Assembly (NCBI GenBank): GCA_020054105.1
Contig: JAGVLW010000107.1
Location: forward strand, 4,645 to 68,644
DNA length: 64,000 nucleotides
From: Alphaproteobacteria bacterium
Lineage (GTDB): Bacteria > Pseudomonadota > Alphaproteobacteria > Rickettsiales > SXRF01
Direction: 5' to 3'
Under the pieces are notes generated by a model. It had not been told where the DNA came from. It ran no database searches and saw nothing but the letters and a program-made list of their open reading frames with translations. Position numbers and translations under genes: made by a program. Positions 1,995 to 36,982 of the stretch are shown one piece after another. Position 1 is the stretch's first letter; every line of letters begins with the position of its first letter.

Positions 1995-2734
1995 ATGTTT
2001 TCTCCAATGATCGATCTTGCCCTCTCGAGCCCCTCCAGCGTATCGACGCCCAGCGGCACCGTATCGACCACCGCCACCTCGATGCGCATCCCCGCCTCCA
2101 TCGCCCGCAATTGCTCCAGCTTTTCGCGCTGCTCGAGCGGGCTGGGCGGCAGGCTCACGAATTTTTCCAGCGCGGCGCGGCGATAGACGTAAATGCCAAT
2201 ATGGTGGAATGCGCCGGAGCTGTAGGTGCGGGAAAAAGAAAGCGCCTTGCCAGTTTTTTGCTTTTTTTCGCCGGCGACTGACGACTCATGACTAACGACT
2301 ACCTTCACCACCGCCGAATTATTTTTTTCCGCCTCGTCCGTTATTTCCGCCGCCAGCGTCGCGATGTCGACCTGCGGGTTTTGCATCAGCGCCACCGCAT
2401 GTCGCAAAATGGCCGGGTCGAGTGTCGGCATGTCGCCTTGCACGTTGATGACGATGTCGTATTTTTTTTCGGGATCGAGCAGTTGCAGCGCCTGATGGAT
2501 GCGGTCGGAACCGGAAGGCAAATCGCAATCGGTGAGCACCGCGCGGCCGCCCGCCGCCGTCACCGCATCGACGATCTCCTGATCGCCCGCCGCCACCACC
2601 ACCTCGCCGACGCCCGCTTGCAGCGCGTACTGCATCACGCGCACCACCATCGGCACGCCGCCGATAGGCGCGAGCGGCTTGTTTGGCAAACGGGTGGAGG
2701 CCATCCGCGCCGGGATGAGAATGATAGATTTCAT
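1991..2734 (-). CDS. kdsB: 3-deoxy-manno-octulosonate cytidylyltransferase
   Basis: MKSIILIPARMASTRLPNKPL matches the KdsB N-terminus. I moved the start to the internal ATG at 2734, because the track start at 2851 adds 39 non-homologous residues. The gene contains a family D heptamer array. Confidence 0.85.
   Translation of the reverse strand: MKSIILIPARMASTRLPNKPLAPIGGVPMVVRVMQYALQAGVGEVVVAAGDQEIVDAVTAAGGRAVLTDCDLPSGSDRIHQALQLLDPEKKYDIVINVQGDMPTLDPAILRHAVALMQNPQVDIATLAAEITDEAEKNNSAVVKVVVSHESSVAGEKKQKTGKALSFSRTYSSGAFHHIGIYVYRRAALEKFVSLPPSPLEQREKLEQLRAMEAGMRIEVAVVDTVPLGVDTLEGLERARSIIGENI
2275..2302. repeat. Family D heptamer array (AGTCGTT type), single arm, in frame in kdsB
   Basis: On the coding strand: AGTCGTT AGTCATG AGTCGTC AGTCGCC, translated VVSHESSV. 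This is the same frame and peptide type as the leuS copies. Confidence 0.75.
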
Positions 2735-2958
2735 TGAATACTCATTACGGCATTTTTCGCTAGGCTGAATCAAATGCGTAGCTTTTTCGAGCATCGTAGC
2801 GCAAGTGTACGCTCGGGTACATGCGCAACGAAGCAGAGAAAAAGCAAGCAAGTTGGTCAGCCTAGTAGAAAAACATTCAGTCTTTTTTAATCATGTTGAT
2901 CGAATATGGCCAGCATATTATAAAGACGGCAAGTATCCTTTAATGTTTGGAATCGCGC

Positions 2959-3531
2959 ATGAATCAATCAGGGTTGGAACTCAATAAAATCGTTGCCGCC
3001 GTACTGCTCGCCGGCATTATCGCGCTGGTCGCGAGCTTCGCCAGCGACGGGCTCTATCAAGGCGGCAGCGGCCACGGGGAAAAAGATGCCAAGCGCGGCT
3101 ACACCATCGCCGGGGCGGAAAGCGCCGACAGCGCAGGGTCCGCAGCGCCCGCCGCCGAGGAAAAACCCGTCGACATCCTGCCGCTGCTTGCCGGCGCCGA
3201 CCTGACCGCCGGCGAAGCGCAGGTCAAGAAATGCGCCGCCTGCCATACGTTCGACAAGGGTGGCAAAAACGGCGTCGGCCCCAACCAGTGGAACCTGATC
3301 GGCAGCGATTTCGGCCATGTCGCGGGCTATGCCTATTCCGATGCGATCAAGGCGCTGCATGGCAGCAAAAAATGGGGATTCCAGGAGCTGTCCGATTTCC
3401 TCGCCGGCCCCAAAAAATACCTGCCCGGCAATAAAATGTCGTTTGCCGGCATCAAAAACCCGCAGGACCGCGCCAACCTGATCGCCTATCTCAACACCCT
3501 GTCCGACAAGCCGTTACCGCTGCCAAAATAA
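2959..3531 (+). CDS. membrane-anchored class I cytochrome c (CycM-like)
   Basis: An N-terminal TM helix (IVAAVLLAGIIALVASF) and an Ala/Glu-rich linker are followed by a CAACH haem motif and a mitochondrial-type cytochrome c fold sequence (GPNQWNLIG...KMSFAGIKNPQDRANLIAYL). The start is set at ATG 2959; the track uses TTG 2947. Confidence 0.8.
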   Translation: MNQSGLELNKIVAAVLLAGIIALVASFASDGLYQGGSGHGEKDAKRGYTIAGAESADSAGSAAPAAEEKPVDILPLLAGADLTAGEAQVKKCAACHTFDKGGKNGVGPNQWNLIGSDFGHVAGYAYSDAIKALHGSKKWGFQELSDFLAGPKKYLPGNKMSFAGIKNPQDRANLIAYLNTLSDKPLPLPK

Positions 3532-3548
3532 TTATTGAAAGGCTGCTT

Positions 3549-4013
3549 ATGGAACTATCGATCGTCTATGTCTGGCTGATTGTCGGCGTGGTGCTCATGC
3601 TGCTCGAAGCGTTCGGCCTGCCCGGCATGGGCATGTTCTTTGCCGGGCTGGGCGCGCTGACCGTCGGATTGCTGGTGAGCTTCGATACCATCATCCCCGA
3701 AGACTCGCTCATGCAGTTCATTTTCTTTTTCGCCACGACCATCGTGTGGGCGGTGCTATTATGGAAACCGCTGCAGCAATTCAAGGTCGGGAAAAAAGCG
3801 CAGAGCTACGCCAACATCGTCGGCGACACCGCCTATGTCGGCAGCAGCGGCATCAGCAAAAAAGACGGCGGCGAAGTCACCTGGTCGGGCACGATCATGA
3901 AAGCCCGCCTCGATGCCGCCAGCCTGCCGGAATGCCTGGAAGCCGGCGCGCAGGTCATCATCACCGAAATCACCGGCAATGTGCTGACGGTAAGGCCCAA
4001 AACAGGGAATTGA
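3549..4013 (+). CDS. NfeD-family membrane protein
   Basis: Three N-terminal TM helices and a C-terminal soluble beta domain lie directly upstream of an SPFH/stomatin gene, the classical nfeD-SPFH pairing. Its TGA stop lies in the first unit of repeat A1. Confidence 0.7.
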   Translation: MELSIVYVWLIVGVVLMLLEAFGLPGMGMFFAGLGALTVGLLVSFDTIIPEDSLMQFIFFFATTIVWAVLLWKPLQQFKVGKKAQSYANIVGDTAYVGSSGISKKDGGEVTWSGTIMKARLDAASLPECLEAGAQVIITEITGNVLTVRPKTGN

Positions 4014-4146
4014 GGAAGCGAAGGAACTGAAGAATTGAAGAAATAAGGAAGTGAAGTCATGGAATCTAAGATCGGGCCCATTTAGCTATCTTTTTAATTC
4101 CCCAGTTCTTCATTTCCTCATTTCCCCTTATTCCTCATTTCCTCTT
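4005..4146. repeat. Family A octamer inverted array (A1), intergenic nfeD/SPFH
   Basis: The left arm consists of GAGGAAGC/GAAGAATT/GAAGAAAT-type units. The right arm carries the complementary TTCTTCATTTCCTCATTTCC units. The nfeD TGA stop lies inside the first unit (GGAATTGAGG). Confidence 0.85.
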
Positions 4147-4158
4147 AGGAGAACCAAC

Positions 4159-5118: not shown

Positions 5119-5120
5119 GA

Positions 5121-5204
5121 GGTAACAGGGATCAGATAACAGGTAACAGACTATGGTCAGGCGCATTCTGCTCTCTTTACTGTTGTCCTTTTCCTGTCAC
5201 CTGC
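5121..5204. repeat. Family C heptamer inverted array (C1) spanning the yejA start
   Basis: GGTAACAGGGATCAGATAACAGGTAACAG, then ATG 5153, then CTGTTGTCCTTTTCCTGTCACCTG. The right arm encodes signal-peptide residues LLSFSCHLLP. Confidence 0.75.
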
Positions 5205-6946
5205 TTCCCGGCGCTGCTTACGCAGCGCCCTCCCACTGCCTCACCTATTACGGCGAATGCAAATATCCGGCGGGCTTTGCGCATTTCGACTATGTCAATC
5301 CCGATGCGCCCAAAGGCGGCGGCGTCAAGCTTGCCGAGACCGGCTCTTTCGATAATCTCAATCCGTTTATTTTAAACGGCGTCAAGGCGCCGGCCATCGC
5401 TGCCATGCTTTTCGAATCGCTGATGGCCGCCTCGCAAGACGAGCCGCAGACGCTTTATGGGCTGGTCGCGCAGAGCGTCGAGGTGGCCAAGGATGGCGGC
5501 TCGGTCGAATTTGTTTTGCGCAATGAAGCACGCTTTCATGACGGCTCAAAAATCACGCCCGACGACGTGGTGTTTTCGTTTGCGACGCTGAAGGAAAAAG
5601 GCGACCCGACTTACAAGATTCTCTACGCCGCCATCGCGTCGGCGGAAAAAACCGGCGAGCACACGGTGCGGTTTACTTTCACCGACGGCAAGAACCGCGA
5701 GCTGCCGCTGATCGCCGCATCGATGCCGATCTTATCGAAAGTCTACTATGACAAAGTCGATTTTTCCAAAACGACGCTGGAGGCGCCGGTCGGCAGCGGG
5801 CCTTACAAGGTCGAAAGCGTCGAACAGGGCCGCCAGATCACCTACAGGCGCGACCCGGATTACTGGGGCAAGGATTTGCCGGTCAATCGCGGCCAGTATA
5901 ATTTCGCGACATTCCGCTACGATCTCTACCGCGACGAAAACGTCGCCATGCAGGGGCTGTTCGCCGGAGAATATGATTTCCGCCGCGAATATATCGCGCG
6001 CAACTGGGCGACCGCCTACGACGTGCCGGCGGTGCGCGACGGGCGCATCGTCAAGCGCAACATCCCCGATGAAACACCGCAAGGCATGCAGGCGTTCATT
6101 TTCAACACGCGCAAACCGCAATTCGCCGACCGCCGCGTGCGCGAGGCGATCGACCTCGCGCTCGATTACGAATGGGTGAATAAAACCATTTTCTACGGCG
6201 CGTATGAGCGCAACCATAGCTATTTCCAAAACACCGAATTCGAAGCCAAGGGCCTGCCGCAAGGCAAGGAGCTGGCGCTGTTGAAACCGCTTGCCGATGA
6301 GCTGCCCCCTGCCCTGTTCACGCAGCCGTTCAAAAACCCGACGACCGACGGCTCCGGCAACGCCCGCGACAATTTGCTAAAGGCGCAAAAGCTGCTCGAA
6401 GAGGCGGGCTGGCAGGTCAAAGACGGCAAGCGTGTCGATGCGAAAGGCGCGCCGCTAAATATCGAGTTCATGCTGCGCCAGCCGACGATGGAGCGCGTCA
6501 TCGGCCCGATGCGCAAGAATCTGGAGCGGCTCGGCATCGCTTCCTCCATCCGCATGGTCGACGATTCGCAATACCAAAAACGTCTCGACGACAAGGATTT
6601 CGACATCGTCTCCATCTGGATCAACCGCGGTAATTTCTTTCCCGGCAACGAGCAGGTGGCGCTGTGGCACTCGGCGCAGGCCGAGGTGAAAGGCGGCAAT
6701 AACCTGGGCGGAACGCAAAGCAAGGCCGTCGATGCGCTGCTGGGCGCCTTGGTCAATGCCAAGGATTACGACGATTACCGCGCCGCCGGCCGCGCGCTCG
6801 ACCGCGTGCTGCTGTGGGAGCATTACGTCATCCCCAACTGGAATTCGGGCAGCTACCGCGTCGCCTATTGGGATAAGTTCGGCCTGCCGAAAATCCAGGC
6901 GAAATACAACCTGGCGTTCCAGGCGTGGTGGGTGAAGCCAAGGTAA
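5153..6946 (+). CDS. yejA: ABC transporter periplasmic substrate-binding protein, family 5 (YejA-like peptide/microcin C type)
   Basis: 597 aa with a signal peptide ending AAYA. Size and sequence fit YejA-type SBPs, and it is followed by yejB/E/F homologues. Confidence 0.8.
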   Translation: MVRRILLSLLLSFSCHLLPGAAYAAPSHCLTYYGECKYPAGFAHFDYVNPDAPKGGGVKLAETGSFDNLNPFILNGVKAPAIAAMLFESLMAASQDEPQTLYGLVAQSVEVAKDGGSVEFVLRNEARFHDGSKITPDDVVFSFATLKEKGDPTYKILYAAIASAEKTGEHTVRFTFTDGKNRELPLIAASMPILSKVYYDKVDFSKTTLEAPVGSGPYKVESVEQGRQITYRRDPDYWGKDLPVNRGQYNFATFRYDLYRDENVAMQGLFAGEYDFRREYIARNWATAYDVPAVRDGRIVKRNIPDETPQGMQAFIFNTRKPQFADRRVREAIDLALDYEWVNKTIFYGAYERNHSYFQNTEFEAKGLPQGKELALLKPLADELPPALFTQPFKNPTTDGSGNARDNLLKAQKLLEEAGWQVKDGKRVDAKGAPLNIEFMLRQPTMERVIGPMRKNLERLGIASSIRMVDDSQYQKRLDDKDFDIVSIWINRGNFFPGNEQVALWHSAQAEVKGGNNLGGTQSKAVDALLGALVNAKDYDDYRAAGRALDRVLLWEHYVIPNWNSGSYRVAYWDKFGLPKIQAKYNLAFQAWWVKPR

Positions 6947-7012
6947 CAGGTGACAGGTGACAGGCGGCAGATATAATGTTTTGTCCGTAACCTGTTTCCT
7001 GTCGCCTGTTGC
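6941..7012. repeat. Family C heptamer inverted array (C2) at the yejA/yejB junction
   Basis: AGGTAACAGGTGACAGGTGACAGGCGGCAG - loop - GTCCGTAACCTGTTTCCTGTCGCCTGTTGCC. The yejA TAA stop is the TAA of the first GGTAACA unit. Confidence 0.9.
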
Positions 7013-8119: not shown

Positions 8120-9216
8120 TGGAAGGTAACAGGTATCAGGTGGCGGGTGACGGAAAGAATGATGGCAATCTGCCACCTGTCACCTGTCACCTGTCACCTT
8201 TAACCCGCCGCAGGCTTAGCCTTTTTCGCGCCAATAGGCGCGGTTATTGGAGCCTGTGGATTTTCCTGCTGTTGTTTTTCCTGAGTCTGTTTGCGGAGCT
8301 CATCGCCAACGACAAGCCGATCTTGCTGCGCTATCAGGGCGCGTTTTATTTCCCGGTCGTCGCGACCTACAGCGAAAAAACCTTCGGCGGCGATTTCGAT
8401 ACCGAGGCGGTTTACCGGGACGCTTTCGTGCGCCAGCGCATCGAATCCGAAGGCGGCTGGATGCTCTGGCCGCCCATCCGCTACAGCTATTCCACCATCA
8501 ATTACGATCTCGGCCGCCCCGCCCCCTCGCCGCCGACGCGCGAAAACTGGCTGGGCACCGACGACCAGGGGCGCGACGTATTGGCGCGGCTGATTTACGG
8601 CTTCAGGCTGTCGGTGTGTTTCGGCCTGCTGCTGACCAGCTTCAGCGCCGTCTTCGGCATAATGGCCGGGGCGGTGCAGGGATTTTTCGGCGGCTGGATC
8701 GATTTGGCTTTTCAGCGTTTCATCGAGATCTGGTCGGGCCTGCCGGAACTGTTTCTACTCATCATCCTGGCCAGCCTCATCACCCCGAATTTCTGGTGGT
8801 TGCTGGCCATCTTGCTGCTGTTCACATGGATGTCGCTGGCCGGCGTCGTGCGCGCCGAATTCCTGCGCGCGCGCAATTTCGATTATGTGAAAGCCGCCCG
8901 CGCGCTGGGCGTGTCGGAGCTTCGCATCATGGTGCGTCACGTGCTGCCCAATGCGCTGGTGTCGGCAATGACGGTGATCCCGTTCATGATGAGCGGCGCG
9001 GTGGCGGCGCTGACCACGCTCGATTTCCTGGGCTTCGGCCTGCCGCCCGGCTCGGCGAGCCTGGGCGAGTTGCTGCTGCAGGGCAAGAATAATCTGCAGG
9101 CGCCGTGGCTGGGCTTTGCCGGCTTCATGGTGATTTCGCTGCTGCTGGTGCTCATCATTTTCATCAGCGAGGCGGTGCGCGACGCGTTCGACCCGCGCAA
9201 GGAGCTGATGCGATGA
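8119..9216 (+). CDS. yejE: ABC transporter permease YejE
   Basis: [39 protein letters not shown] closely matches the E. coli YejE N-terminal region as I recall it. The ATG overlaps the yejB stop (TAATG). The first ~25 codons are encoded by repeat C3. Confidence 0.8.
8125..8199. repeat. Family C heptamer inverted array (C3) at the yejB/yejE junction, translated as the YejE N-terminus
   Basis: GGTAACAGGTATCAGGTGGCGGGTGACGG - loop - TGCCACCTGTCACCTGTCACCTGTCACC, encoding ...NRYQVAGDG...[12 protein letters not shown]. Confidence 0.9.
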
Positions 9217-11964: not shown

Positions 11965-13305
11965 ATGCATCAGCAAAACACCATCTTCGCCCTTGCCACG
12001 CCCCCTGTCCGCTCCGGCGTGGCGGTCATACGCATTTCCGGCGACCGCGCCCTGCCCGCCCTCGCCCAGCTCACCGGCAAAGCCGACTGGCAGCCCAACC
12101 TCGCCCGCTATACTTCCTTTTCACGAGCCACGAATCACGAGCCACGAGCCACGATCGATAGCGGCCTCGCCTTTTATTTCAAAGCCCCAAAGAGCTTCAC
12201 CGGCGAGGATGTCGCCGAGCTGCATTGTCATGGCAGCCTCGCCGTCATACGCGAGCTGCTGGAGGCACTGGCGGCGATTGAAGGGCTGCGCCCCGCCGAG
12301 CCGGGCGAATTCACCCGCCGCGCCTTTCTAAACGGTAAAATGGATCTGGTCGAGGCCGAGGGGCTGGCCGACCTCATCGAGGCGGAAACGCCAGCGCAGC
12401 GCAAGCAGGCGCTGTCGCAAATGCAGGGCGAGGCAAGCCGGCGCTACGAAGCGTTGCGCGGCCAGATCGTCCAGGCGCTGGCCCATCTCGAAGCGTTCAT
12501 CGATTTTCCCGAGGAGGAGATACCGGCATCGCTGCTGGATGGCATCAAGCGGCAAATCGAAACTTTGACGGCGGCGATCGAAACCGCGCTGGCCGACGAT
12601 CGGCGCGGCGAGCGCGTGCGCGGCGGCATCCGCGTCGTCATCCTGGGCGCGCCCAATGTCGGCAAGTCGAGTTTGCTCAACCGGCTGGCCGGGCGCGACG
12701 CCGCCATCGTATCGGCCAGGGCAGGGACGACGCGTGACGTCATCGAGGTGCATATGGAGTTGGGCGGCTTCCCGGTCATCCTCACCGATACGGCGGGCCT
12801 GCGCGAAAGCGGCGACGATATCGAGGAAGAGGGGATCCGTCGCGCCATGGCCCGCGCTGAGGAGGCCGACATCAAGCTGGTGCTGTTCGATGCCAGCCAG
12901 GGCGGGCAGGACGAGCAGAGCAGGGGACTAATTGGAGATAATACATTGATAATTAATAATAAAGCAGATTTATTGCAATCACGAATCACGAACCACGAAT
13001 CACGAACCACGTTCTTCATCTCCACCCAAACCGGCCACGGGCTAGAAGAGATGCTTTCGGCGCTGGAGCAAAAAATCAGCGCCATGTTTCATACGGCCAA
13101 TGCACCGCTCATCACCCGCAGCCGGCACCGTGCCTTGCTTACCGAGGCACTTGCCTGCCTTGAGCGCCTTAATTGGCACGCGCCGCTGGAGCTGACCTGC
13201 GAGGAGCTGCGGCTGGCCGGGCGCGCCATCGGCAAAATCACTGGCAAAATCGCGGTGGATGATGTATTGGACGTCATCTTTAAGCAGTTTTGCATAGGGA
13301 AGTGA
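11965..13305 (+). CDS. mnmE: tRNA uridine-5-carboxymethylaminomethyl modification GTPase MnmE (TrmE)
   Basis: IFALATPPVRSGVAVIRISG, GAPNVGKSSLLN, DTAGLRE and NKADL G-motifs, plus the diagnostic C-terminal FCIGK. Contains heptamer arrays B1 and B2. Confidence 0.95.
   Translation: MHQQNTIFALATPPVRSGVAVIRISGDRALPALAQLTGKADWQPNLARYTSFSRATNHEPRATIDSGLAFYFKAPKSFTGEDVAELHCHGSLAVIRELLEALAAIEGLRPAEPGEFTRRAFLNGKMDLVEAEGLADLIEAETPAQRKQALSQMQGEASRRYEALRGQIVQALAHLEAFIDFPEEEIPASLLDGIKRQIETLTAAIETALADDRRGERVRGGIRVVILGAPNVGKSSLLNRLAGRDAAIVSARAGTTRDVIEVHMELGGFPVILTDTAGLRESGDDIEEEGIRRAMARAEEADIKLVLFDASQGGQDEQSRGLIGDNTLIINNKADLLQSRITNHESRTTFFISTQTGHGLEEMLSALEQKISAMFHTANAPLITRSRHRALLTEALACLERLNWHAPLELTCEELRLAGRAIGKITGKIAVDDVLDVIFKQFCIGK
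12122..12155. repeat. Family B heptamer array (B1), single arm, in frame in mnmE
   Basis: CACGAGC CACGAAT CACGAGC CACGAGC CACGATC, encoding SRATNHEPRAT. Confidence 0.85.
12979..13011. repeat. Family B heptamer array (B2), single arm, in frame in mnmE
   Basis: CACGAAT CACGAAC CACGAAT CACGAAC CACG, encoding SRITNHESRTT. The orientation and frame match B1. Confidence 0.85.
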
Positions 13306-20988: not shown

Positions 20989-23707
20989 AATTTGCGACCA
21001 CATTGACGATCCTGTTGGGCACGACGATGATTTTAACGACCGTTTTATCTTTAAGCGCATCCTTGACGGCTTGCAACTCCAATGCGGCGCGCTCGGCTCC
21101 GGCCTTATCCATATCCCTGGGCAAATTCAGGGTGCCCTTGAGCTTGCCGTTGATCTGCACCGCCACCGTCACCTCGTCATCGGCAAGCAGCGCGGCATCG
21201 GCCACCGGCCAGGCCGACTGGGTCAACGATTCCTTATGGCCGAGCTGCTGCCATAATTCCTCGGCCAGATGCGGCATGAAGGGCGCGATGAGGCGAACTA
21301 CGGCATCGATGGTTTCCGCGATTGCAAAGGCCGTTTCCGGGGCAGGGGCGGCGTTATTTGCCGTCATCTCCCCCAGCAGGTTCGTCAGCTCGCGGATACG
21401 CGCGATCGCCTTGTTGAAATGGAACCGCTCGATGTCGTCGGTGACGGCGGCGATGGTTTGGTGGGTGGCCTTGCGTAGGCGCAAGGAGTCGTTAGTCGTT
21501 AGTTGTGAGTCGTTAGTATTTTCCTTGCTAACGACTAGCGACTTATGACTAACGACTAACTTCCACAATCTTTGGATATAGCGCCAAGCGCCTTCGATGC
21601 CGGCGTCGGTCCATTCCAAATCGCGCTCGGGCGGGCTGTCGGAAAGCATGAATAGCCGCGCCGCGTCGGCGCCGTAGCTTTCCATGATATGGCGCGGGTC
21701 GACGGTGTTTTTCTTCGATTTGCTCATTTTTTCAACGCGGCCGACGGTGACGGGCTTGCCGGTTTTTAATTCGATAACGATAGGTGACAGGTGACGGGTA
21801 ACAGGTGACAGAGGAGTATCTTCTGTTGCCTGTTGCCTGTTATCTGTTTCCTCTATCCTCACTTCCTCCGGCGAGAGCCACTTGCCGTCCGCCGATTTAT
21901 AGGTCTCGTGGCAGATCATGCCCTGGGTTTCCAGCCGCTTGAACGGCTCGGGAGGAACCGAAAACCCGCACTTCGCCAAAGCGCGGCAAAAAAACCGCGA
22001 ATAGAGCAAATGCAGCACCGCATGCTCGATGCCGCCGATATAGCAATCGACCGGCAACCATTTTTCCACCGCTTTTGGCTCGAGCGGGTCGGGCGAGGGC
22101 AGTGTGGCGAAACGGGCGAAATACCAGGAAGATTCGAAGAAGGTGTCGAACGTGTCGGTCTCGCGCCGGGCAGGCTTGTCGCAGGCCGGGCAGGCCACAT
22201 GCTTCCAGGTCGGGTGGCGCTCCAGCGGGTTGCCGGGCTTGTCGAACGTTACGTCGCGCGGCAACTCCACCGGCAGGTCTTTTTCGGGAACGGGAACCGC
22301 GCCGCAGCCGTCGCAATAAATAATCGGGATCGGGCAGCCCCAGTAACGCTGGCGGGAAATGCCCCAGTCGCGCAGGCGGTAGTTGATTTTAGCCTTGCCG
22401 GCGCCGCGTTTTTCCAGCTCGGCGATGGCTTTTTGCTTGGCCTCTTCGACAGAAAGACCGTTTAGGAAATCGGAATTGATGAGGGTGCCGTCGCCTAAGT
22501 AAGGTAAGTCCTTAGTCGTAAGTCGTGAGTCGTTAGTAGTATTTTCGCTAACGACTAACGACTCAGGACTAACGACCGGAAGTATAGGCAGCCCATATTT
22601 CACCGCGAATTCATAGTCGCGCTGGTCGTGGGCCGGGCAGCCGAAAATCGCGCCGGTGCCGTAATCCATCAGCACGAAATTGGCAACGTATAGCGGTACT
22701 TCCCGCCCGTCGAACGGATGGATGATTTTCAGGCCGGTATCGAAGCCTTTTTTCTCGGCCTTCTCGATCGCCTCCTGGCTGGTGCCGAGCTGGTTGCATT
22801 CGGCGATGAAAGCAGAGAGTCTAGAGTCTAGAGTCGAGAGTCGAGTAGACAAAGGATGGTTTGACGCAATAGCGCAAAAGGACATGCCGAAAATAGTATC
22901 CGGCCGGGTGGTATAAATTTCTAAGTCCTTAGTCGTTAGTCCATAGTCGTAAGTGGAATCTTGGTTACTAACGACTAACGACTCACCACTAACGACTTGA
23001 AGACGTAATGTTGCGCCGGAGGACTTACCAATCCATTTCTCCTGCATGAGGCGAACTTTTTCCGGCCAGGCGTCAAGCGACGCCAGGCTTTGCAAAAGCT
23101 CCTCGGCGTAATCGGTGATGCGCAAGAACCACTGCGATAATTTGCGCCGCTCCACCGGCGCGCCGGAGCGCCAGCCGCGCCCGTCGATCACCTGCTCGTT
23201 GGCCAGCACCGTGTTATCTACCGGGTCCCAATTCACCTCGGCTTCTTTGCGGTAGGCAAGGCCGGCTTCGAGGAATTTCAGGAAAAAACGCTGCTCATGC
23301 TTGTAATAGTCCGGCAAGCACGTCGCCAGCTCGCGCGACCAGTCGTAGGACAGGCCGATCAGCCCCAGCTGTTCGCGCATGGTGTCGATATTGGCGAGCG
23401 TCCAGTCCTGCGGATGCGCGCCGCGCTCGATGGCGGCGTTCTCGGCGGGCAGGCCGAACGCGTCCCAGCCCATCGGGTGCAGCACCGCAAAGCCCTGCAT
23501 CTGCTTGGCGCGCGCCACCACGTCGCCCAGCGTGTAGTTGCGCACATGGCCCATATGGATGTTGCCGGAAGGGTAGGGGAACATCTCGAGCACATAATAG
23601 TTCGGCTTGCCGCCGGCGTTGCTTGCGGCAAAGCTTTGCGCCTGCCGCCAATGGCGCTGCCACTTTGCTTCGGTCTCGCGAAAATTATAGCGGGAAGGTT
23701 CGGTCAT
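20987..23707 (-). CDS. leuS: leucine--tRNA ligase
   Basis: [13 protein letters not shown] (HIGH) and KMSKSKKN (KMSKS) motifs within full-length LeuS sequence. Carries five heptamer-array segments in frame. Confidence 0.95.
21487..21560. repeat. Family D heptamer inverted array (D1), in frame in leuS
   Basis: AGTCGTTAGTCGTTAGTTGTGAGTCGTTAGT - ATTTTCCTTGC - TAACGACTAGCGACTTATGACTAACGACTAAC, encoding [25 protein letters not shown]. Confidence 0.9.
21782..21851. repeat. Family C heptamer inverted array (C5), in frame in leuS
   Basis: AGGTGACAGGTGACGGGTAACAGGTGACAG - loop - CTGTTGCCTGTTGCCTGTTATCTGTTTCC, encoding [23 protein letters not shown]. Confidence 0.9.
22496..22576. repeat. Family D heptamer inverted array (D2), in frame in leuS
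   Basis: TAAGTAAGGTAAGTCCTTAGTCGTAAGTCGTGAGTCGTTAGT - AGTATTTTCGC - TAACGACTAACGACTCAGGACTAACGAC, encoding [27 protein letters not shown]. Confidence 0.9.
22814..22850. repeat. heptamer array AGAGTCT/AGAGTCG (D4), single arm, in frame in leuS
   Basis: AGAGTCT AGAGTCT AGAGTCG AGAGTCG AGTAGAC, encoding [11 protein letters not shown]. Confidence 0.8.
22921..22996. repeat. Family D heptamer inverted array (D3), in frame in leuS
   Basis: CTAAGTCCTTAGTCGTTAGTCCATAGTCGTAAGT - GGAATCTTGGT - TACTAACGACTAACGACTCACCACTAACGAC, encoding [26 protein letters not shown]. Confidence 0.9.
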
Positions 23708-23715: not shown

Positions 23716-23839
23716 GGAGAATTGAAGAAATGAGGAATTGAAGAATTGAGGAAATATAGTGCAGTTATAAAATGCGATTGTCTTATTCTTCATTTCTTCA
23801 TTTCTTCAGTTCCTCATTTCTTCAGTTCCTCATTTCCCC
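23716..23839. repeat. Family A octamer inverted array (A2), between the DUF3576 gene and leuS
   Basis: GGAGAATTGAAGAAATGAGGAATTGAAGAATTGAGGAAAT - 29-nt loop - ATTCTTCATTTCTTCATTTCTTCAGTTCCTCATTTCTTCAGTTCCTCATTTCCCC. Confidence 0.9.
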
Positions 23840-25878: not shown

Positions 25879-26607
25879 ATGACACTGGCGGCAGCGGTGG
25901 AAACAATCCGTAAAACCATAGAAAAAACAGCTAAAAACAGGCTGTTGTCCACGGATTCCGTCACCTTGCTGGCCGCCAGCAAAGGGCAGTCGGCGGCGCG
26001 TATCGAGGAAGCCATCGCCCTGGGCGTAGCGGTTTTCGGGGAAAACAAGGTGCAGGAGGCGGCCGAGAAATGGCCGGCCATCAAGCAACGCCACCAGAAT
26101 GTGGCGCTCCATCTCATCGGCCCGCTGCAAACCAACAAGGTGAAAGACGCGCTGGCACTGTTTGACGTGATTCAAACGCTGGATAGGCCTTCGCTAGCGA
26201 ATTCGCTAGCGAAGGAATTGAAGAATTGGGGAAATGAAGAATTGAAGAAAAAAGAATCTTCAATTCCTCAATTCTTCAATTCCTCAATTCCCACTTTCTA
26301 CATCCAAATCAACACCGGCGAAGAGCCGCAGAAAGCCGGGGTTTTACCAAAAGACGCCGACGCCTTTATTGAAGATTGCGTTACAGGATTGAAGCTACCG
26401 GTCGTCGGGTTGATGTGCGTGCCGCCGGCAGATCAGCCGCCGGCGCCGCATTTCGCGCTGCTGCGCACGATCGCGCTTCGTCATGGGTTGCGTGAACTCA
26501 GCATGGGCATGAGCGGCGATTATGAAACGGCGATTCGGATGGGCAGCACATGCGTGCGGGTGGGGACGGCGTTGTTTGGGGAGAGGAAGCGGGAATTGGA
26601 GAAATGA
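25879..26607 (+). CDS. yggS: YggS-family pyridoxal-phosphate homeostasis protein
   Basis: LLAASKGQS (PLP lysine), FGENKVQEA, HLIGPLQTNKVK and LSMGMSGDYETAI motifs. The start is set at ATG 25879 with AAGG upstream; the track uses TTG 25864. Contains repeat A3, and the stop lies inside repeat A4. Confidence 0.85.
   Translation: MTLAAAVETIRKTIEKTAKNRLLSTDSVTLLAASKGQSAARIEEAIALGVAVFGENKVQEAAEKWPAIKQRHQNVALHLIGPLQTNKVKDALALFDVIQTLDRPSLANSLAKELKNWGNEELKKKESSIPQFFNSSIPTFYIQINTGEEPQKAGVLPKDADAFIEDCVTGLKLPVVGLMCVPPADQPPAPHFALLRTIALRHGLRELSMGMSGDYETAIRMGSTCVRVGTALFGERKRELEK
26191..26292. repeat. perfect 22-bp palindrome plus Family A octamer inverted array (A3), in frame in yggS
   Basis: TCGCTAGCGAATTCGCTAGCGA is a perfect palindrome. 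It is followed by AGGAATTGAAGAATTGGGGAAATGAAGAATTGAAGAA - AAAAGAAT - CTTCAATTCCTCAATTCTTCAATTCCTCAATTCCC. Together they encode SLANSLAKELKNWGNEELKKKESSIPQFFNSSIP. Confidence 0.92.
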
Positions 26608-26671
26608 GGAATTGGGGAAAAATCGATCCTCTCTTGATTCTTCATTTCCTCATTTCTTCAATTCCCCATTT
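26591..26671. repeat. Family A octamer inverted array (A4) containing the yggS stop
   Basis: GGGAATTGGAGAAATGAGGAATTGGGGAAAAA - loop - GATTCTTCATTTCCTCATTTCTTCAATTCCCCATTTC. The yggS TGA is the TGA of a GAAATGAGG unit. Confidence 0.88.
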
Positions 26672-26675
26672 CAAG

Positions 26676-27328: not shown

Positions 27329-27406
27329 TGCCTCGTAATCGTGCCTTGTGCCTAGTGCCTTGTGCTTCGTATTTCGAGGCACGAGACACGAAACACTAGG
27401 CACTCG
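27329..27406. repeat. Family B-related heptamer inverted array (B3), fills the atpD/atpC intercistronic gap
   Basis: The left array is GTGCCTT GTGCCTA GTGCCTT GTGCTTC GTATTTC. The right array is GAGGCAC GAGACAC GAAACAC TAGGCAC. There is a perfect 10-bp pairing, GTGCCTAGTG/CACTAGGCAC. Confidence 0.85.
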
Positions 27407-28957: not shown

Positions 28958-29989
28958 CTAGAAACGCCGGCCGCCAAAGCCGCCATCGCCAGGGTAGCGC
29001 CTTCGATAGCCGGCATGAGGAGTGTCCCGCTTGGTTTTGTCATCGCGCATCCGCTGGCTATAATAAGCCATGTCAACGCTGGCGACCTCTTCAGTGCCGG
29101 TGCTGATGGCTTTTTCCCAATGGCCCATCAACCGCCCTTCCCATAATGGCCCAAGCAGGCGCTCCAGGGTGGAATATTTGAATTCCTTCCGGCCCTTGCT
29201 GTCTTTGACGTCGTTTAAATCCGCGTCCTTGGCTCTTTGCAGATTATAAATATCATCATGGTTCGGTGGGAAATCGGCCACATGCTCCATGAGCCGGGCC
29301 TTGGACAGGTAATAGCGGCGCTCGCCGCCGCCCGGCTGCTCGTCATAGGCGCACACCAAATAGCCCAGCCTGTGGCTAAAAGAGAAGCCTCTCCCACGGG
29401 GAGGAGCATAAGGCTCTAATTGCTTCTCGGTAAGGCGATAGGCGATTTGTCCCGCCATGCCCGGCACGTCTCTTACGACTGCCGCGTTTTTTATGAGCGC
29501 CTCCAGATCGGAGCGATCAAGCGACGGGCGGATGGCGGCCATCTCCGGCATGGGCTGTATGGCCCCCGGCTCAAGCGCATCGAGCCGTTCCCACAGCCTG
29601 GCTTCCGAAAGATAAAAACGGCGGGGGTGAGGTGAGGTGCGCAGATGTATCTCGTCCCATTTGGCGCCCGGCCGATCCCAGCCGACGATTGAATTACCCA
29701 GCGCTATCTCTTCGGGGGTAAACATCGTATCTCTCGGGATAGGCTTGCTGGCCGCAGCCGACTCTTCGACCAGCTTGCGAATATCCGCCTCATCCACGCG
29801 TATGATGGCATCGCCCTCGGCAGTCCGAGGACGATGACCGGGGAAATTATCAATGAGCAAGGCGAGGGGAGGCTCATTGAATAATATTTTCTCCAGCTGT
29901 TTATGGCCGAGCGCCGGCGGCACCATATCTAAATAAGCGGCGCGGCATTCTTGCAAATGTTTCAATTCTGCTTCGCTGAGTTTTGCCAT
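28958..29989 (-). CDS. hypothetical protein inserted between atpG and atpD (internal duplication)
   Basis: 343-aa ORF with AT-rich flanking spacers. It has two related modules (PRRFYLSEARLWERLDAL and ERRYYLSKARLMEHVADF) and an Arg/Gly-rich tail. No signal peptide and no motif I recognise. Confidence 0.55.
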   Translation of the reverse strand: MAKLSEAELKHLQECRAAYLDMVPPALGHKQLEKILFNEPPLALLIDNFPGHRPRTAEGDAIIRVDEADIRKLVEESAAASKPIPRDTMFTPEEIALGNSIVGWDRPGAKWDEIHLRTSPHPRRFYLSEARLWERLDALEPGAIQPMPEMAAIRPSLDRSDLEALIKNAAVVRDVPGMAGQIAYRLTEKQLEPYAPPRGRGFSFSHRLGYLVCAYDEQPGGGERRYYLSKARLMEHVADFPPNHDDIYNLQRAKDADLNDVKDSKGRKEFKYSTLERLLGPLWEGRLMGHWEKAISTGTEEVASVDMAYYSQRMRDDKTKRDTPHAGYRRRYPGDGGFGGRRF

Positions 29990-30079: not shown

Positions 30080-31036
30080 TTAAACAGCCTCGGCGCCGGA
30101 GATAATCTCGATGAGTTCCTTGGTGATGCTGGCCTGGCGGGTGCGGTTATATTTCAGGTTCAGCTTCTTGATCATCTCGCCGGCATTGCGCGTGGCATTG
30201 TCCATCGCGCTCATGCGCGCGCCTTGTTCGCTGGCCGCGTTTTCCAGCAGCGCGCGATAAATCTGCACGCCGAGATTACGCGGCAATAAATCGGCGAGGA
30301 TCTCGCCTTCTTCGGGTTCGTAGTCGTAGGGGATGTCGTTCGTCGCTCGTCGCTCGCCGCTCGCATTGCCGAGCGACGAATCGCTAGCGACGAGCAGCGG
30401 AATTAATTGCTGCCAGGTCACCACCTGCGAGATGGCGGATTTGAACGTGTTATAGACGATATGGGCGACGTCGAACTCGCCGGCGGCGAATTTTTCGGCG
30501 ACAAGCGTCGAGATGGCCTGCGCGTCGCCGTAGCCAATCTTCTTTTTGGCAAGCTCGGATTTATGGACGATGAGCTTGGAAAATTCGAGCTGTAGCTGCT
30601 CGGCGCCCTTGCGGCCGACGCACATCAGCTTCACCGTTTTTCCCTGCACCTGCAGCTCGCGGATCTTGCGGCGCGCCGCGCGCACGATCGAGCTGTTGAA
30701 ACCGCCGCACAGGCCGCGGTCGCCGGTCGCGACAATGACCAGATGCGTGTTGTTTTTGCCAGTGCCGGAAAGAAGAGGATGGGAAGAATTGAGGAATTGA
30801 GGAATTGAAGAATCGCCTTTTTCTTCAGTTCCCCAATTCTTCATTTCTTCATTTCGCTGGGAAGCAGCTAAGCTTACCAGCAACCGCTCCATCGCCACGG
30901 AATAAGGACGCGCCGCCTCGGCGGCTTCCTTGGCCCGGCGCAGTTTCGCCGCCGCCACCATCTTCATCGCCTTGGTGATCTTCTGCGTCGATTTGACCGA
31001 CTTGATGCGGTTTTTAAGGTCTTTTAAGCTGGGCAT
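30080..31036 (-). CDS. atpG: F1 ATP synthase gamma subunit
   Basis: [35 protein letters not shown] at the N-terminus and [21 protein letters not shown] at the C-terminus. Two repeat-encoded segments (A5, D5) make it about 25 residues longer than usual. Confidence 0.92.
30336..30395. repeat. heptamer inverted array CGTCGCT type (D5), in frame in atpG
   Basis: GTCGTTCGTCGCTCGTCGCTCGCCGCTCGC - ATTGCC - GAGCGACGAATCGCTAGCGACGAGC, encoding [21 protein letters not shown]. Confidence 0.85.
30775..30856. repeat. Family A octamer inverted array (A5), in frame in atpG
   Basis: GAAGAATTGAGGAATTGAGGAATTGAAGAAT - CGCCTTTT - TCTTCAGTTCCCCAATTCTTCATTTCTTCATTTC, encoding [24 protein letters not shown]. Confidence 0.9.
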
Positions 31037-33004: not shown

Positions 33005-33027
33005 TTTAGTCTTTCTCCTTATTGTAA

Positions 33028-33114
33028 GAGGAAATGAAGAATTGAGGAATTGAAGATAATGAGGAAACGCTAACTTAAATTCCTCAATTCCTCAGTTCTT
33101 CATTTCCTCAATTC
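33028..33114. repeat. Family A octamer inverted array (A6), in the atpH/atpA spacer
   Basis: GAGGAAATGAAGAATTGAGGAATTGAAGATAATGAGGAAA - CGCTAACTTA - AATTCCTCAATTCCTCAGTTCTTCATTTCCTCAATTC. Confidence 0.9.
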
Positions 33115-33668: not shown

Positions 33669-33818
33669 GGGTTTGCGGCAGGGGTTGGTTCGGGGAGTCG
33701 GCAAATTAGGCAAATTTCCCCGCAAAGGCAATGGGAAAATAAGGGGACGGGATTCGGCGTGACAATGGTTTCCTTGCCTGCTATCAGTTAATTCATATTA
33801 ACTATACGGTAGGGGCAC

Positions 33819-34478
33819 ATGCCGGAAGCTTACGTCACCGAAGAGTCACTTTCCCCAGCCGAAAGGGAAGCCTGGAATTATTGCGGCCGGGCTTGTGAAC
33901 AGATAAAGAGCGCGCGTTCATGGCTGATCGACCATCTCTCCTCCATTGGAATCAATGTGGAGGAACGCTGGCAAAAAATATTGGCTAAGTCGGACGATCC
34001 TGAACGACTAATCATGCTAACCAAAATAATGCGGGGGATGGAACCGTTCACCGTTTATTCCGAAATGATCGATGAGGGCCATGCGCTTTGCGCCCATGTG
34101 CAAAAACTGGATGATATAGCAACTAACGCACTGCGTACTTTGGCTACCAATAGCTATGAAAATCCCTTCATCGCCATGAACGCGAACGTGCCGGACAAAG
34201 TGCATGAATTCTTGAGAGTATGCTCTCTTTACCTCACTGGCCAGTATCTTGCATCCACCCATGGGTTTGACGCCAACCCCAGACGCGCGGTCATCGACGC
34301 AGCACTGAAAATATTACGCAAATGCAAGGAAGATTTCGCCGCCGAACTGCCGGAAAATACGCCTATGCAAGTAGGCGAGAAAATAAAAGCGGCGGCACGC
34401 GCCATCGATAAGGCGATCGCGTCCATGGAACAGGTAAGCGCCGAGCCTGAAAAACCGGCGCGTCGAGAGCGCGTGTAA
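33819..34478 (+). CDS. hypothetical protein (orphan)
   Basis: 219-aa ORF of intermediate GC. I recognise no motif. Confidence 0.45.
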   Translation: MPEAYVTEESLSPAEREAWNYCGRACEQIKSARSWLIDHLSSIGINVEERWQKILAKSDDPERLIMLTKIMRGMEPFTVYSEMIDEGHALCAHVQKLDDIATNALRTLATNSYENPFIAMNANVPDKVHEFLRVCSLYLTGQYLASTHGFDANPRRAVIDAALKILRKCKEDFAAELPENTPMQVGEKIKAAARAIDKAIASMEQVSAEPEKPARRERV

Positions 34479-34481
34479 ATC

Positions 34482-34832
34482 CTACCGGCTTGGAACTGAC
34501 GTGCCAGCTCCGGGGTCTTTCTCAGGAGGATCGCCAAAAAGCTGAGAAGCCAGCGCCGCATCCCGAATGGCCAGAGATTCACGCACGCGAGCAATCTCAT
34601 CCTGATCCAGAAGCCTGTATCTATCAGGGTCGGTTATGTCGATGCTTTTAGGGGTAAATCCTTCATGGCAGAGCGAATAACTCTCACTTTTTCTTCTGAT
34701 ATCAGCCGCCAGCTCGTAAACCGATCCCGTGACGGAAATGCATTGGACATCAGGCAAAAAAATTACAAAACTACTATCAAATATAGTTTCCCCAGCTTGC
34801 CTTACCAAATATGCCTTGGGTTTCTCGGTCAT
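34482..34832 (-). CDS. hypothetical protein (orphan)
   Basis: 116-aa ORF convergent with the previous ORF, with stops 3 nt apart, and immediately upstream of priA on the same strand. I recognise no motif. Confidence 0.4.
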   Translation of the reverse strand: MTEKPKAYLVRQAGETIFDSSFVIFLPDVQCISVTGSVYELAADIRRKSESYSLCHEGFTPKSIDITDPDRYRLLDQDEIARVRESLAIRDAALASQLFGDPPEKDPGAGTSVPSR

Positions 34833-34846
34833 AGATTTTGATTAGA

Positions 34847-36982
34847 CTACAAAAACCCCACCGGATCAATATCCACCTTCACGCGCACGGAGGAGGGGGC
34901 TTTGACCGATTCCACCCAGCCCTTGACGAAATCCGGCAGGTTGATGCTGCGCGCGGCCTTGACGAGCAGGCGGTAGCGGTATTTGCCGCGCAGGCGGTAC
35001 AGCGGGGCGGGGGCGGGGCCGAGGAGGGTGACGGGTGACAGGTGACGGGTGACGGATAAGCCCTCCCCCTTGAGGGGGGAGGGTTGGGAGGGGGTGTGAG
35101 GTGGTTGGGAGGGGGTGACAGTGAAATTGGCCGCTAACAATTTAGTCGTGCGTATTACCGCGTCTTCTTTGGTGCCTTCGATGATGACGGCGGCGAGGCG
35201 CGAGAAAGGCGGCATATGGGCGTTTTCGCGGGCCTGTAATTCGGCTTGCAGGAAGGCCTCGCGGTCGCCCGACAGCAGCGCCTGCATCACCGGATGCTCG
35301 GGCAGGTAGCTTTGCAGATAGACCCGCCCGCGCACGCTCTCGCGCCCGGCGCGGCCCGAAAGCTGGTGTAAAAGCTGGTAGGTTTTTTCCGCCGCGCGCA
35401 GATCGCCGCCGCCCAGTCCCAAATCGGCATCGACGACACCGACCACGGCAAGACCGGCAAAATGATGCCCCTTGGCGATCATCTGCGTGCCGATGAGCAG
35501 GTCGATATTTCCTTCCTGCATGCCGGTGATGGCGTCTTTGAGTTCCTGGTAGCCGGAAAGCTGGTCGCTGGCCATGACGGCTACGCGCGCCTGCGGCAAA
35601 AACTCATGCACCTCCTCGAGCACGCGCTCGACGCCGGGACCGCACGCATGCAAACTATCCGCCGCGCCGCAGGACGGACAGGCGGGAGGAACGGGCTGGG
35701 TGTAGCCGCAATGATGACATTCCAGCCGCGGCTTGCCTTTATGGGCGACCAGCCAACTCGAACACTCAGCACATTCGAAGCGGTGGCCGCAATGGCGGCA
35801 GAGCACTAGCGGCGCATAGCCGCGGCGGTTGAGAAACAACATCGCCTGGTGGTTAGAGGCAATAGTTTGCGCGAGCGCGGCGCGCAGCTTGTCGGAAATA
35901 AACTTTCCGCGCTCGGTCGGCGCGCTGCGCATATCGAGCATTTCCACCTCCGGCAATACTGCATGGTTATGACGCGCCGGCAGCGACACTTCCTTATATT
36001 TTCCGGTTTTGACATTGTGATAGCTCTCGAGCGACGGCGTGGCCGACACCAGCACCACCGGCAATTTCTCGAAACGCCCGCGCGCCACCGCCATGTCGCG
36101 CGCATGGTAGATCGTGCCTTCTTCTTGCTTGTAAGAACCATCATGCTCCTCATCGACGACAATCAGCGATAAATTCCTGTATGGTAAAAACAACGCCGAG
36201 CGAGCGCCGACCACCACGCGCGCATCGCCCTTGGTAATGGCCTGCCAGCCGGCGCGTTTCTGGGCGGGTGTTACTTGCGAATTCCATACCACCGGCGCGA
36301 AACCGAAACGCTTCTCGAAACGCTCCAGCCATTGGACGGAAAGAGCGATTTCGGGCAGGAGGACGAGGATTTGGGAAGGAGGGAATTGAGGAATTGAGGA
36401 ATTGAGGAATTGAGGAATGGGAGCATCTTTTTTCTTCAATTCTTCATTTCTCCAATTCTTCATTTCTGTGCGCTGCAAAGCGCAAGCCACCGCGTCGAAA
36501 TACACTTCCGTTTTACCCGAGCCGGTAACGCCGTCGAGCAGCGTCACCGAAAATCCCTTGCCGATAGGTTCTTCCAAGGCGCTCGCGGCTTTTCGCTGCG
36601 CGTCCGAGAGTTTTGCCAGATGCAGATGATCGGTATCGATAGCGGTTTCAATCGTCGTGCGGCCGGTCTTGGCGATATCGGCAACCGGCAGCACCATCTT
36701 GAGCACAGCGCCCAGGGGCGCGCAATTATACCACGCCGCCCAGGCGATGAATTCGCGCATCGCAATCGATAGCGGCGGGAATTCGCTGTGATGGATTTTA
36801 ATTGGCTTTATTTTTTCGGAAGCGATCTTGGCTTTGCCTTCGCCCCACACCACGCCCAGCGATTGCCCGCGGCCAAACGGTACCGAGACGATGTCGCCGG
36901 GCGCCAGCGTCATGGTCTCGGGCACGACATAATCGAAGCCGTGGTCGAACGCGCCGGGCAGCAGGACTTCCAGTTGTTTCAT
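34847..36982 (-). CDS. priA: primosomal replication restart helicase PriA
   Basis: [14 protein letters not shown] Walker A, DEEHD box, and a Cys-rich zinc region ([21 protein letters not shown]...CHHCGY...CPSCG). Carries repeats A7, C6 and E2 in frame. Confidence 0.9.
35027..35055. repeat. Family C heptamer array (C6), single arm, in frame in priA
   Basis: GGTGACG GGTGACA GGTGACG GGTGACG G, encoding [10 protein letters not shown] on the minus strand. Confidence 0.85.
35061..35118. repeat. Family E element (E2), in frame in priA, adjacent to C6
   Basis: CCCTCCCCCTTGAGGGGGGAGGGTTGGGAGGGGGTGTGAGGTGGTTGGGAGGGGGTGAC, encoding [18 protein letters not shown] on the minus strand. The plus-strand orientation matches E1. 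Confidence 0.85.
36374..36466. repeat. Family A octamer inverted array (A7), in frame in priA
   Basis: GGGAATTGAGGAATTGAGGAATTGAGGAATTGAGGAAT - GGGAGCATCTTTT - TTCTTCAATTCTTCATTTCTCCAATTCTTCATTTC, encoding [29 protein letters not shown]. Confidence 0.92.

Follow-up and report, generated by a model that had tools for sequence, protein, structure and literature searches.

Arrays of tandem heptamers have been known since about 1990, and to our knowledge nobody understands how they originate, spread and are homogenised. Among the short tandemly repeated repetitive (STRR) sequences, STRR1 has the unit CCCCAGT and STRR3 the unit CAACAGT. Another kind of short repeat, the Rickettsia palindromic elements reportedly described by Ogata et al. 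in 2000, is 100-150 bp long and has a conserved full-length consensus. Direct TAACTGA heptamers are found in Beggiatoaceae, some Cyanobacteria and Bacteroidetes, and the tandem heptamers of cyanobacteria, Beggiatoaceae and Bacteroidetes are overwhelmingly intergenic (PMC4679880). As far as the summary in the same source goes, Mrazek 2007 proposed heptamer arrays as a slippage-prone class, and non-triplet units inside genes are rare. Here we describe about 24 arrays whose unit is 7 or 8 nt long, most of them followed by the complementary array, in contig JAGVLW010000107.1. They occupy positions 2275-36467 of the 64-kb stretch that was analysed (the window), reside largely in frame inside housekeeping genes, and are best read as a DNA-level repeat class, not as discrete transposons, in an uncultured alphaproteobacterial lineage.

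The repeats were evident with several kinds of search. Tandem Repeats Finder returned about 45 rows with periods of 7, 8, 14 or 16 at 2275-36467, and listed none of these families past 36467. With a strict detector, nine period-7 and five period-8 arrays were found, against 0.05 and 0 in codon-block shuffles; in the same comparison, periods 5, 6, 9 and 10 were at background level. A sequence-only reading that preceded this analysis had counted about 25 hairpin repeat elements in the first 36 kb, an observation that is confirmed, and it had sorted them into five families, A to E. Unit searches place all copies of these families in the first 36.5 kb, with seven loci for family A (unit GARGAAWT), seven for family C (AGGTGAC), at least six for family D (AGTCGTT and variants), and three for family B. 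The last had been taken for an octamer, and is the heptamer CACGARN with the complement GTGCCTT. Family E had likewise been described as an array family; it is a G-rich hairpin of about 60 nt plus G-runs, present in two copies and containing no tandem array. A 16-nt higher-order unit pattern is common to several family A loci. The elements have a GC content of 45% versus 57% for the background, being AT-richer as had been stated, and account for 4.4% of that 36.5-kb stretch.

Inverted-repeat detection recovered facing arms of 21-37 nt that are 75-93% complementary and 6-56 nt apart, and the folding z-scores of the hairpins against shuffles range from -2.4 to -9.7. The described succession of an array and its reverse complement holds for most copies; it fails for six arrays with no partner arm nearby, namely those in kdsB, both in mnmE, and those at 5120, 22815 and 35026. 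Copies of the same family cluster locally only marginally (P = 0.06). The restriction to one part of the window is much stronger: the last 27.5 kb (37000-64000) are free of arrays of any family (P ~1e-6 under uniform placement), even though the tetranucleotide signature and the GC content at third codon positions (GC3) are uniform over the whole window. A chimeric contig was considered as the cause of the array-free second half, and neither compositional measure gives it support. A clustered regularly interspaced (CRISPR) array was rejected as well, the units being head-to-tail repeats of 7 or 8 nt without spacers. Rfam matched a single tRNA in the window, at 40533-40606, and no Rfam family fits the arrays.

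The host genes are those named by the sequence-only reading. The genes identified with NCBIfam and Pfam are kdsB, an hflK-like gene, yejABEF, mnmE, mnmG, rsmG, parAB, holA, leuS, a DUF3576 gene, a porin gene, yggS, atpHAGD and priA, and lptE was assigned by synteny. About 14 of the 24 arrays are internal to verified, intact genes: one in kdsB, two in mnmE, one in mnmG, five in leuS, one in yggS, two in atpG, and two composite sites in priA. Four more lie at gene ends (at the yejA stop, at the yggS stop, after the yejE start, and in the signal-peptide region of lptE), and five are intergenic. Both the TAA stop of yejA and the TGA stop of yggS come from a repeat unit. Residence in essential genes in frame, or exactly at cistron boundaries, was thus correctly described. 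The proposed coding overlap of the copy near the hflK-like gene was an artefact of open reading frame (ORF) extension, the likely ATG of that gene being near 4158. The yejE copy does lie within the coding sequence, after the start codon, and the NCBIfam YejE match begins at residue 24 of the product.

None of the elements breaks a reading frame. Over the 1139 nt of coding copies, the gene frame contains 0 stops, and the other two sense frames contain 17 and 31. Frame bypass and splicing were considered and are not needed, because the ORFs remain open in the gene frame. The earlier statement that a family is confined to a single reading frame has no evidential weight. Since neither 7 nor 8 shares a factor with 3, a tandem array yields rotations of one cyclic peptide whichever frame is read (EELRN*GI and NSSIPQFL for family A, R*QVTGD and VTCHLSP for family C, SR*SLVV and ND*RLTT for family D; asterisks mark stops), so that the recurring peptides are automatic and silent on the choice of frame. 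Arm 1 of families A, C and D and arm 2 of family D carry one stop per three units in every frame. In each coding copy the in-frame stop, and exactly that one, has been removed, and the out-of-frame junctions keep theirs. All three family A coding copies have TGG at the in-frame unit junction and TGA at the other three junctions; the reported difference between TGG in coding and TGA in intergenic copies is correct. In the four family D coding copies, SR* is changed to SPE, SGE, SHK or SHE. This handling of the stops is the informative aspect, and it agrees with essential genes in which an open frame either survived or was selected for.

The evolution of the arrays was followed mainly in LeuS. 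Homologues at 62-72% identity to the window LeuS belong only to uncultured Alphaproteobacteria metagenome-assembled genomes (MAGs), some labelled Rickettsiales, and are 825-923 residues long. Five relatives (L081, L084, L085, L086 and L087; the contigs L081, L082 and L083 are identical) were compared at the DNA level, with 80 distant alphaproteobacterial leuS loci (1.58 Mb; LeuS at most 59% identical among the matches listed) serving as negative controls. The window and the five relatives have 2.6-23.6 period-7/8 arrays per 10 kb (5.5 in the window), versus 0.23 in the distant loci, an approximately 25-fold higher density in the clade; other periods are not enriched in these six genomes. The units are genome-specific, e.g., AGTCTCC and GAGTTGT in L081, AGTGGCA and AGGATTC in L084, AGAGTCG in L086, and GTTCAGA, AGGATTC and AGGGGTC in L087. 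The same gene positions bear arrays in independent assemblies from NCBI, ENA, JGI and Logan, which speaks against the arrays being assembly artefacts.

In a codon alignment, five LeuS positions bear arrays in several genomes, with units that differ by genome. At site 2, the window and L081 have hairpins that can be aligned at every base, the one built from AGTCGTT/AACGACT and the other from AGTCTCT/AGCGACT. At site 3, L084 has AGGATTC-type and L087 AGGGGTC-type arrays at boundaries identical to those of the window, where the family C arm still starts with AGGATAGAGG and resembles the L084 arrays. Arrays are often perfect, with four identical units, despite a LeuS divergence of 22-35%. Pairing also extends over host sequence: in L081, L084 and L087, an arm at about residue 237 pairs with an arm at about residue 288 across an invariant segment ending in NHPL, and compared with outgroups the downstream arm does not lengthen the protein. 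Both long-range arms are perfect in L084, (AGTGGCA)4 and (TGCCACT)4. The complementarity of arm 1 to arm 2 is higher for arms of one genome (0.93, 0.87 and 0.70) than for arms taken from different genomes (0.53, 0.68 and 0.55). The window retains an orphan arm here (22815-22845). Its complementarity is 93% to the AGAGTCG arm of L086, the closest relative of the window, and only 61% to the upstream arm of the window itself. This indicates that a family D hairpin replaced the original partner in the lineage of the window. Among 120 LeuS proteins, repeat-like peptides recur in the same loops in many lineages, and their presence is patchy; lag-7 self-similarity was detected in 7/120 versus 1/61 proteins, a test that is too insensitive. 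Embedding in coding genes provides orthology anchors, from which gain, loss, unit turnover and arm co-variation are directly readable in alignments. This was done here for five LeuS sites, and conserved genes supply both outgroups and a protein clock; the origin of such arrays becomes a more tractable question when they are embedded in universally conserved genes.

Whether the arrays are additions to the host proteins varies with the site. AtpG exceeds the Paracoccus gamma subunit (5dn6_G) by about 21 residues where the family A hairpin lies and by about 10 at its other array, and it is 318 residues long in the window as against 291 in one clade relative. The family E site of MnmG is a clean 17-residue insertion relative to L085, and family A adds 13-22 residues to YggS in a loop where L081 and L085 have other arrays. 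The mnmE arrays alter the length relative to L085 by a few residues only, the KdsB array would add at most 3 residues as judged from NCBIfam match ranges, and the LeuS arm at residues 288-298 leaves the length exactly as in outgroups. The view of the elements as insertions is accordingly upheld in part. Distant orthologues are without the segments, which speaks against ancestral linkers. By alignment, the AtpG, MnmG and YggS copies have been inserted in variable loops. An AlphaFold2 model of the window LeuS was built from the 120-sequence alignment (mean predicted local distance difference test score, pLDDT, 85.5; predicted template modelling score 0.82). Apart from three N-terminal residues, all segments with pLDDT <50 are inside array inserts (253-257, 390-392, 625-627 and 631-639); site 4 is modelled as a helix. 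With low confidence confined to the inserts and the rest of LeuS confidently modelled, the array inserts are thus predicted to be excursions from an intact fold. Non-triplet microsatellites would then be tolerated in essential enzymes (LeuRS, F1 gamma, PriA and MnmG) as translated, mostly disordered loops, which is of relevance to protein insertion tolerance and has a practical bearing on how genes are called, and the quality of MAGs is controlled, in this lineage.

Similar arrays were found well outside the clade. The family A pattern has matches in no fewer than 120 metagenome contigs, whose GC content is 38-66%; many of them have 5-12 period-7/8 arrays with other units, often in facing pairs. 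The window octamer GAGGAATT forms arrays in other phyla too, including Desulfobacterales-like and viral contigs, and viral contigs contain (AGTCGTT)3 as well as the family A pattern much more often than chance predicts, some of these contigs being array-rich. Thus, this kind of repeat is not unique to the clade, and coding residence is its distinctive feature there. In the clade, 47 of 68 arrays (69%) are deep inside long ORFs, where 68% of the sequence qualifies as such. In other array-rich contigs the proportion is 32 of 205 (16%), such ORFs covering 61% of the sequence, consistent with the published intergenic location. A protein search with an idealised family A peptide gave five weak matches, all of them to tiny ORFs; the proteins of the window itself were not among them, and the search is no guide to copy number across the genome.

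Some further features of these contigs were observed. Four IMG/VR contigs (L226, L232, L214 and L218) each contain 9-14 arrays of period 7/8, some with AGTCGTT and AATTGAGG units, and may be phages or prophages of array-rich hosts. In contig L135, assigned to Desulfobacterales by its GlyQ (named matches 89-94% identical), a GAACCCA array and its complement GGGTTCA bracket the whole of glyQ (9267-10241), about 900 nt apart, and other heptamer pairs that face each other are located between genes, an indication that array pairing over long distances is not restricted to the alphaproteobacterial clade. The first-arm units in the window, in L081-L087 and in L122 nearly all fit AG(T/G)NNNN (AGTCGTT, AGTCTCC, AGTGGCA, AGTGCCT, AGTTCAG, AGGTGAC, AGGATTC and AGTGAAG are examples), and the second arms end in (A/C)CT. 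We take the same core to be present in STRR1 and STRR3 and, as its complement, in TAACTGA. The AG(T/G)/(A/C)CT core may be the signature of a shared mechanism.

The explanation that we favour, and hold to be slightly more likely than not, is that the elements are STRR-like palindromic microsatellites, endemic to this lineage, which slippage, templating of one arm by the other and ectopic conversion maintain, and which are translated as disordered loops. Their sites are long-lived; those in genes correspond to surface loops that vary, to N- or C-termini, or to start or stop codons. Arrays would be made and resized by replication slippage. Intrastrand template switching between the arms, the process of quasipalindrome mutagenesis in E. 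coli, would keep them complementary while the unit drifts. Ectopic copying or conversion between arrays would maintain a few genome-specific families and would at times overwrite or seed a site. Purifying selection on the host protein would purge variants with in-frame stops or frameshifts, leaving survivors that are translated, short and mostly disordered. We infer these three molecular processes, together with the absence of a dedicated function, from features that are themselves observed: the anatomy of the elements, their in-frame residence, positional conservation with unit turnover, arm co-variation, and the lack of hallmarks of transposable elements of the miniature inverted-repeat kind (MITEs). 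The mechanism would account for the last three of these and for the perfect arrays in diverged genes. Several points weigh against it. Families A and E act as clean 17-22-residue insertions, as expected of a mobile element, and family E has non-array sequence in common between its two loci. Slippage and conversion leave unexplained the restriction to periods 7 and 8, the polarity by which the AG(T/G)-containing, G-richer arm is nearly always 5', and the array-free 27.5 kb of uniform composition. The patchy site-3 insert of LeuS needs repeated gains at identical boundaries or inter-lineage recombination. Kept arm complementarity could be equally compatible with selection for a structure.

In a second explanation, which is that of the sequence-only reading, the elements would be non-autonomous mobile hairpins of the MITE or Rickettsia palindromic element type, inserted by an enzyme encoded elsewhere and surviving only where they are in frame, stop-free and tolerated. 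In its favour are the several multi-copy families in 36 kb, the clean insertions in atpG, mnmG and yggS relative to orthologues, and the patchy presence among relatives. The family E sequence of about 60 nt at two loci of opposite gene orientation and the 16-nt pattern shared by family A loci would also be in keeping with mobility, and the same units in other phyla and viral contigs would suit horizontal spread. However, when family A copies were aligned with their flanks, only the arrays were shared: the loops, of 8-55 nt, are unrelated, and there are neither conserved termini nor target-site duplications. Conserved host coding sequence separates arms, one arm comes without added length, and the unit is changed between orthologous hairpins, the loops of relatives having other units. 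The genes of the 64-kb window include mutL, and no transposase, Y1 transposase, RAYT or reverse transcriptase is encoded among them. Mobile hairpins are therefore an unlikely explanation, and the earlier interpretation, with its picture of Rickettsia-like colonisation, is supported only in part. Selection for structural or binding elements, i.e., DNA or RNA hairpins or sites of a heptad-reading protein, with the coding copies as a side effect, appears less likely again. Such elements would serve to stabilise mRNA, to couple or pause translation, or to organise the chromosome. Arm complementarity is kept within genomes while the sequence changes, even in the long-range pair, many copies lie exactly on cistron boundaries, start codons or stop codons, and their density is strongly regional, all of which could reflect a function; a part in regulation has been suggested for the heptamer arrays of Beggiatoaceae and Nostoc (PMC4679880; bioRxiv 10.1101/2022.06.06.494920). 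On the other hand, the sense RNA fold is not favoured, with a summed folding energy of -607 kcal/mol versus -675 kcal/mol for the antisense, and in coding copies it is on average the weaker of the two. The two strands have symmetric hairpin potential, the palindrome thus looks like a DNA-level property, and selected mRNA structure was discarded as the principal explanation. Close relatives differ in their units, in the lengths of the loops and even in the presence of the elements, six arrays are without a partner arm, and no Rfam family matches, all of which counts against a selected structure.

A more far-reaching possibility, which we regard as improbable, is a lineage-specific, family-directed rewriting of DNA that places tandem 7/8-mer palindromes again and again at those sites of essential genes that are permissive. 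The process, be it targeted conversion or synthesis templated by a short sequence acting in trans, would overwrite native codons at times and pair arms across conserved segments. If this were true, the loop sequences of core proteins would be set by a genome-wide repeat-homogenising machine and not by point mutation, and because the units share the AG(T/G)/(A/C)CT core, such a machine may also be behind the STRR-type arrays of cyanobacteria, of Desulfobacterales and of their phages. Artefacts of assembly or binning, or ancestral low-complexity linkers that merely look repetitive, have next to no probability. The window does come from a metagenome-type contig, and its element-free second half could hint at a chimera. 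Recurrence at the same gene positions in independent assemblies, intact ORFs, and the uniform tetranucleotide signature and GC3 argue against an artefact, as the lack of the segments in distant orthologues does against linkers.

Table 1. Repeat elements of the window, with their host genes or positions (residue numbers refer to the product of the named gene; a dot marks elements without a strand)
Position	Strand	Element	Location and remarks
2275..2301	-	Family D single-arm array, AGTCGTT-type on coding strand	kdsB, residues 184-193 (VVVSHESSVA)
4007..4147	.	Family A hairpin, GARGAAWT arrays, loop of ~55 nt	Intergenic, upstream of hflK-like gene
5120..5149	.	Family C single array (AGGTAAC)	Intergenic, hflK-like gene / yejA
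6941..7010	+	Family C hairpin	yejA/yejB boundary; yejA TAA stop in first unit (CCA AGG TAA)
8124..8199	+	Family C hairpin	Immediately 3' of yejE start codon; residues 2-27 (...PPVTCHLSP)
12122..12154	+	Family B heptamer array (CACGAGC/CACGAAT)	mnmE, residues 53-64; +4 residues vs L085
12977..13011	+	Family B heptamer array	mnmE, residues 338-349; few-residue length change vs L085
14350..14410	+	Family E G-rich hairpin and G-runs	mnmG, residues 130-150; clean 17-residue insertion vs L085
20917..20982	-	Family C hairpin	lptE N-terminal (signal-peptide) region, adjoining leuS stop
21487..21560	-	Family D hairpin	leuS site 4, residues 716-741
21782..21852	-	Family C hairpin	leuS site 3, residues 619-642; in place of 8-10-residue loop
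22504..22576	-	Family D hairpin	leuS site 2, residues 378-402; orthologous to L081 AGTCTCT/AGCGACT hairpin
22815..22845	-	Orphan arm, GACTCTN on coding strand	leuS, residues 288-298
22924..22997	-	Family D hairpin	leuS site 1, residues 237-262
23718..23837	.	Family A hairpin	Intergenic, upstream of leuS; every unit junction TGA
26212..26291	+	Family A hairpin (KELKNWGNEELKKKESSIPQFFNSSIP)	yggS; 13-22-residue insertion vs relatives
26591..26672	+	Family A hairpin	yggS 3' end; provides last five codons and TGA stop
27341..27403	.	Heptamer hairpin GTGCCTT / AGGCAC(N), complementary to family B	Intergenic, downstream of atpD
30335..30393	-	GTCGCTC-type hairpin	atpG, residues 215-234; ~+10 residues vs Paracoccus gamma subunit
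30783..30855	-	Family A hairpin	atpG, residues 61-85; ~21-residue insertion between 5dn6_G residues 65 and 68
33028..33114	.	Family A hairpin	Intergenic, atpA / atpH
35026..35130	-	Family C array (GGGTGAC x4), then second family E copy	priA, residues 618-653
36382..36467	-	Family A hairpin	priA, residues 172-201

Several observations on the elements and their neighbourhood (Table 1) are added here. In both family E copies (14350-14410 and 35068-35130) the G-runs, which are potential G-quadruplex sequences, are on the + strand, and the host genes are on opposite strands. The orientation of family E may follow the chromosome rather than transcription, a weak indication from only two copies. Two tandem copies of the 12-nt palindrome TTCGCTAGCGAA (26190-26213) lie directly upstream of the first family A hairpin of yggS and are translated within the same loop (SLANSLA). 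The array-rich part of the window contains the mnmE-mnmG-rsmG-parAB cluster, frequently a neighbour of oriC. Between atpG and atpD, a 343-residue ORF on the - strand (28958-29989) has no Pfam or NCBIfam match and contains no arrays; atpG and atpD are adjacent in a clade relative, 25 nt apart. This ORF is an unusual insertion into the atp operon. The genes at 37000-64000 are ordinary (transaldolase, DUF484, xerC-like, secF, ribF, lspA, M16 peptidases, pgi, mutL, purH and NAD-GDH). At 40533-45300, the tRNA (40533-40606) is followed by a stretch of low GC content (~45-50%) that encodes a TrbC/VirB2-type pilin (40902-41330). Further downstream, past PBP, Nfu and secF, a DUF3800 protein is encoded (44628-45278). 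The region looks like the remnant of an integrated conjugative element.

Among described systems, the REP/BIME/REPIN repeats and MITEs such as Correia, ERIC and Nezha are likewise short, dispersed, hairpin-forming and often located between cistrons. Those elements have a defined consensus and depend on a RAYT or a transposase, neither of which is seen here. MITEs have terminal inverted repeats and target duplications, whereas no duplicated flanks or conserved ends beyond the arrays are found in the window. REP and REPIN sequences are extragenic, in contrast to the mostly intragenic copies of a window that contains no Y1 transposase; the flanks and loops of family A are unconserved, and no search was aimed at a GTAG-type 5' motif. 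The TAACTGA repeats (PMC4679880) are likewise tandem heptamers with stops in all frames of one orientation and a scattered phylogenetic distribution, occasional copies of which overlap ORF ends or sit in ORFs in the stop-free orientation. They are, however, overwhelmingly intergenic, just upstream of starts, and have a single unit and one inverted example genome-wide; the units described here differ, and only some copies abut start codons.

The Rickettsia palindromic elements resemble those of the window in lifestyle. Both are palindromic, reside in frame in alphaproteobacterial housekeeping genes with the ORF preserved, and are translated as extra surface segments that do not destroy the protein. 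Here only the micro-arrays align, with unrelated loops between them, and arms bracket host sequence or replace it without a change in length. The STRR sequences and the long simple sequence repeats (LSSRs; units of 5-11 nt) resemble them in architecture, and STRR was a good choice of analogue by the sequence-only reading. As in STRR, three to six or more units of 7 nt (or 8 nt) stand head to tail, beyond chance (9 + 5 arrays versus about 0 in shuffles), and several lineage-specific families per genome occupy many dispersed loci (A 7, C 7, D at least 6, B 3); many units share the AGT.../...ACT core with STRR1 and STRR3. The differences are that STRR sequences are predominantly intergenic whereas most arrays of this clade are deep in long ORFs, that the arrays here mostly form facing complementary pairs, and that STRR in the strict sense has heterocystous cyanobacteria as hosts, whereas the window has alphaproteobacterial gene content and LeuS relatives in Alphaproteobacteria MAGs. 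Each of the two closest systems is thus missed by one defining feature, the intergenic location of STRR and the conserved full-length consensus of the Rickettsia elements. Literature searches yielded only work on STRR, TAACTGA and LSSRs, in agreement with the earlier statement that the combination is undescribed. The architecture of STRR and the in-frame lifestyle of the Rickettsia elements are known singly, and to the extent of the literature found, their combination in coding regions is new.

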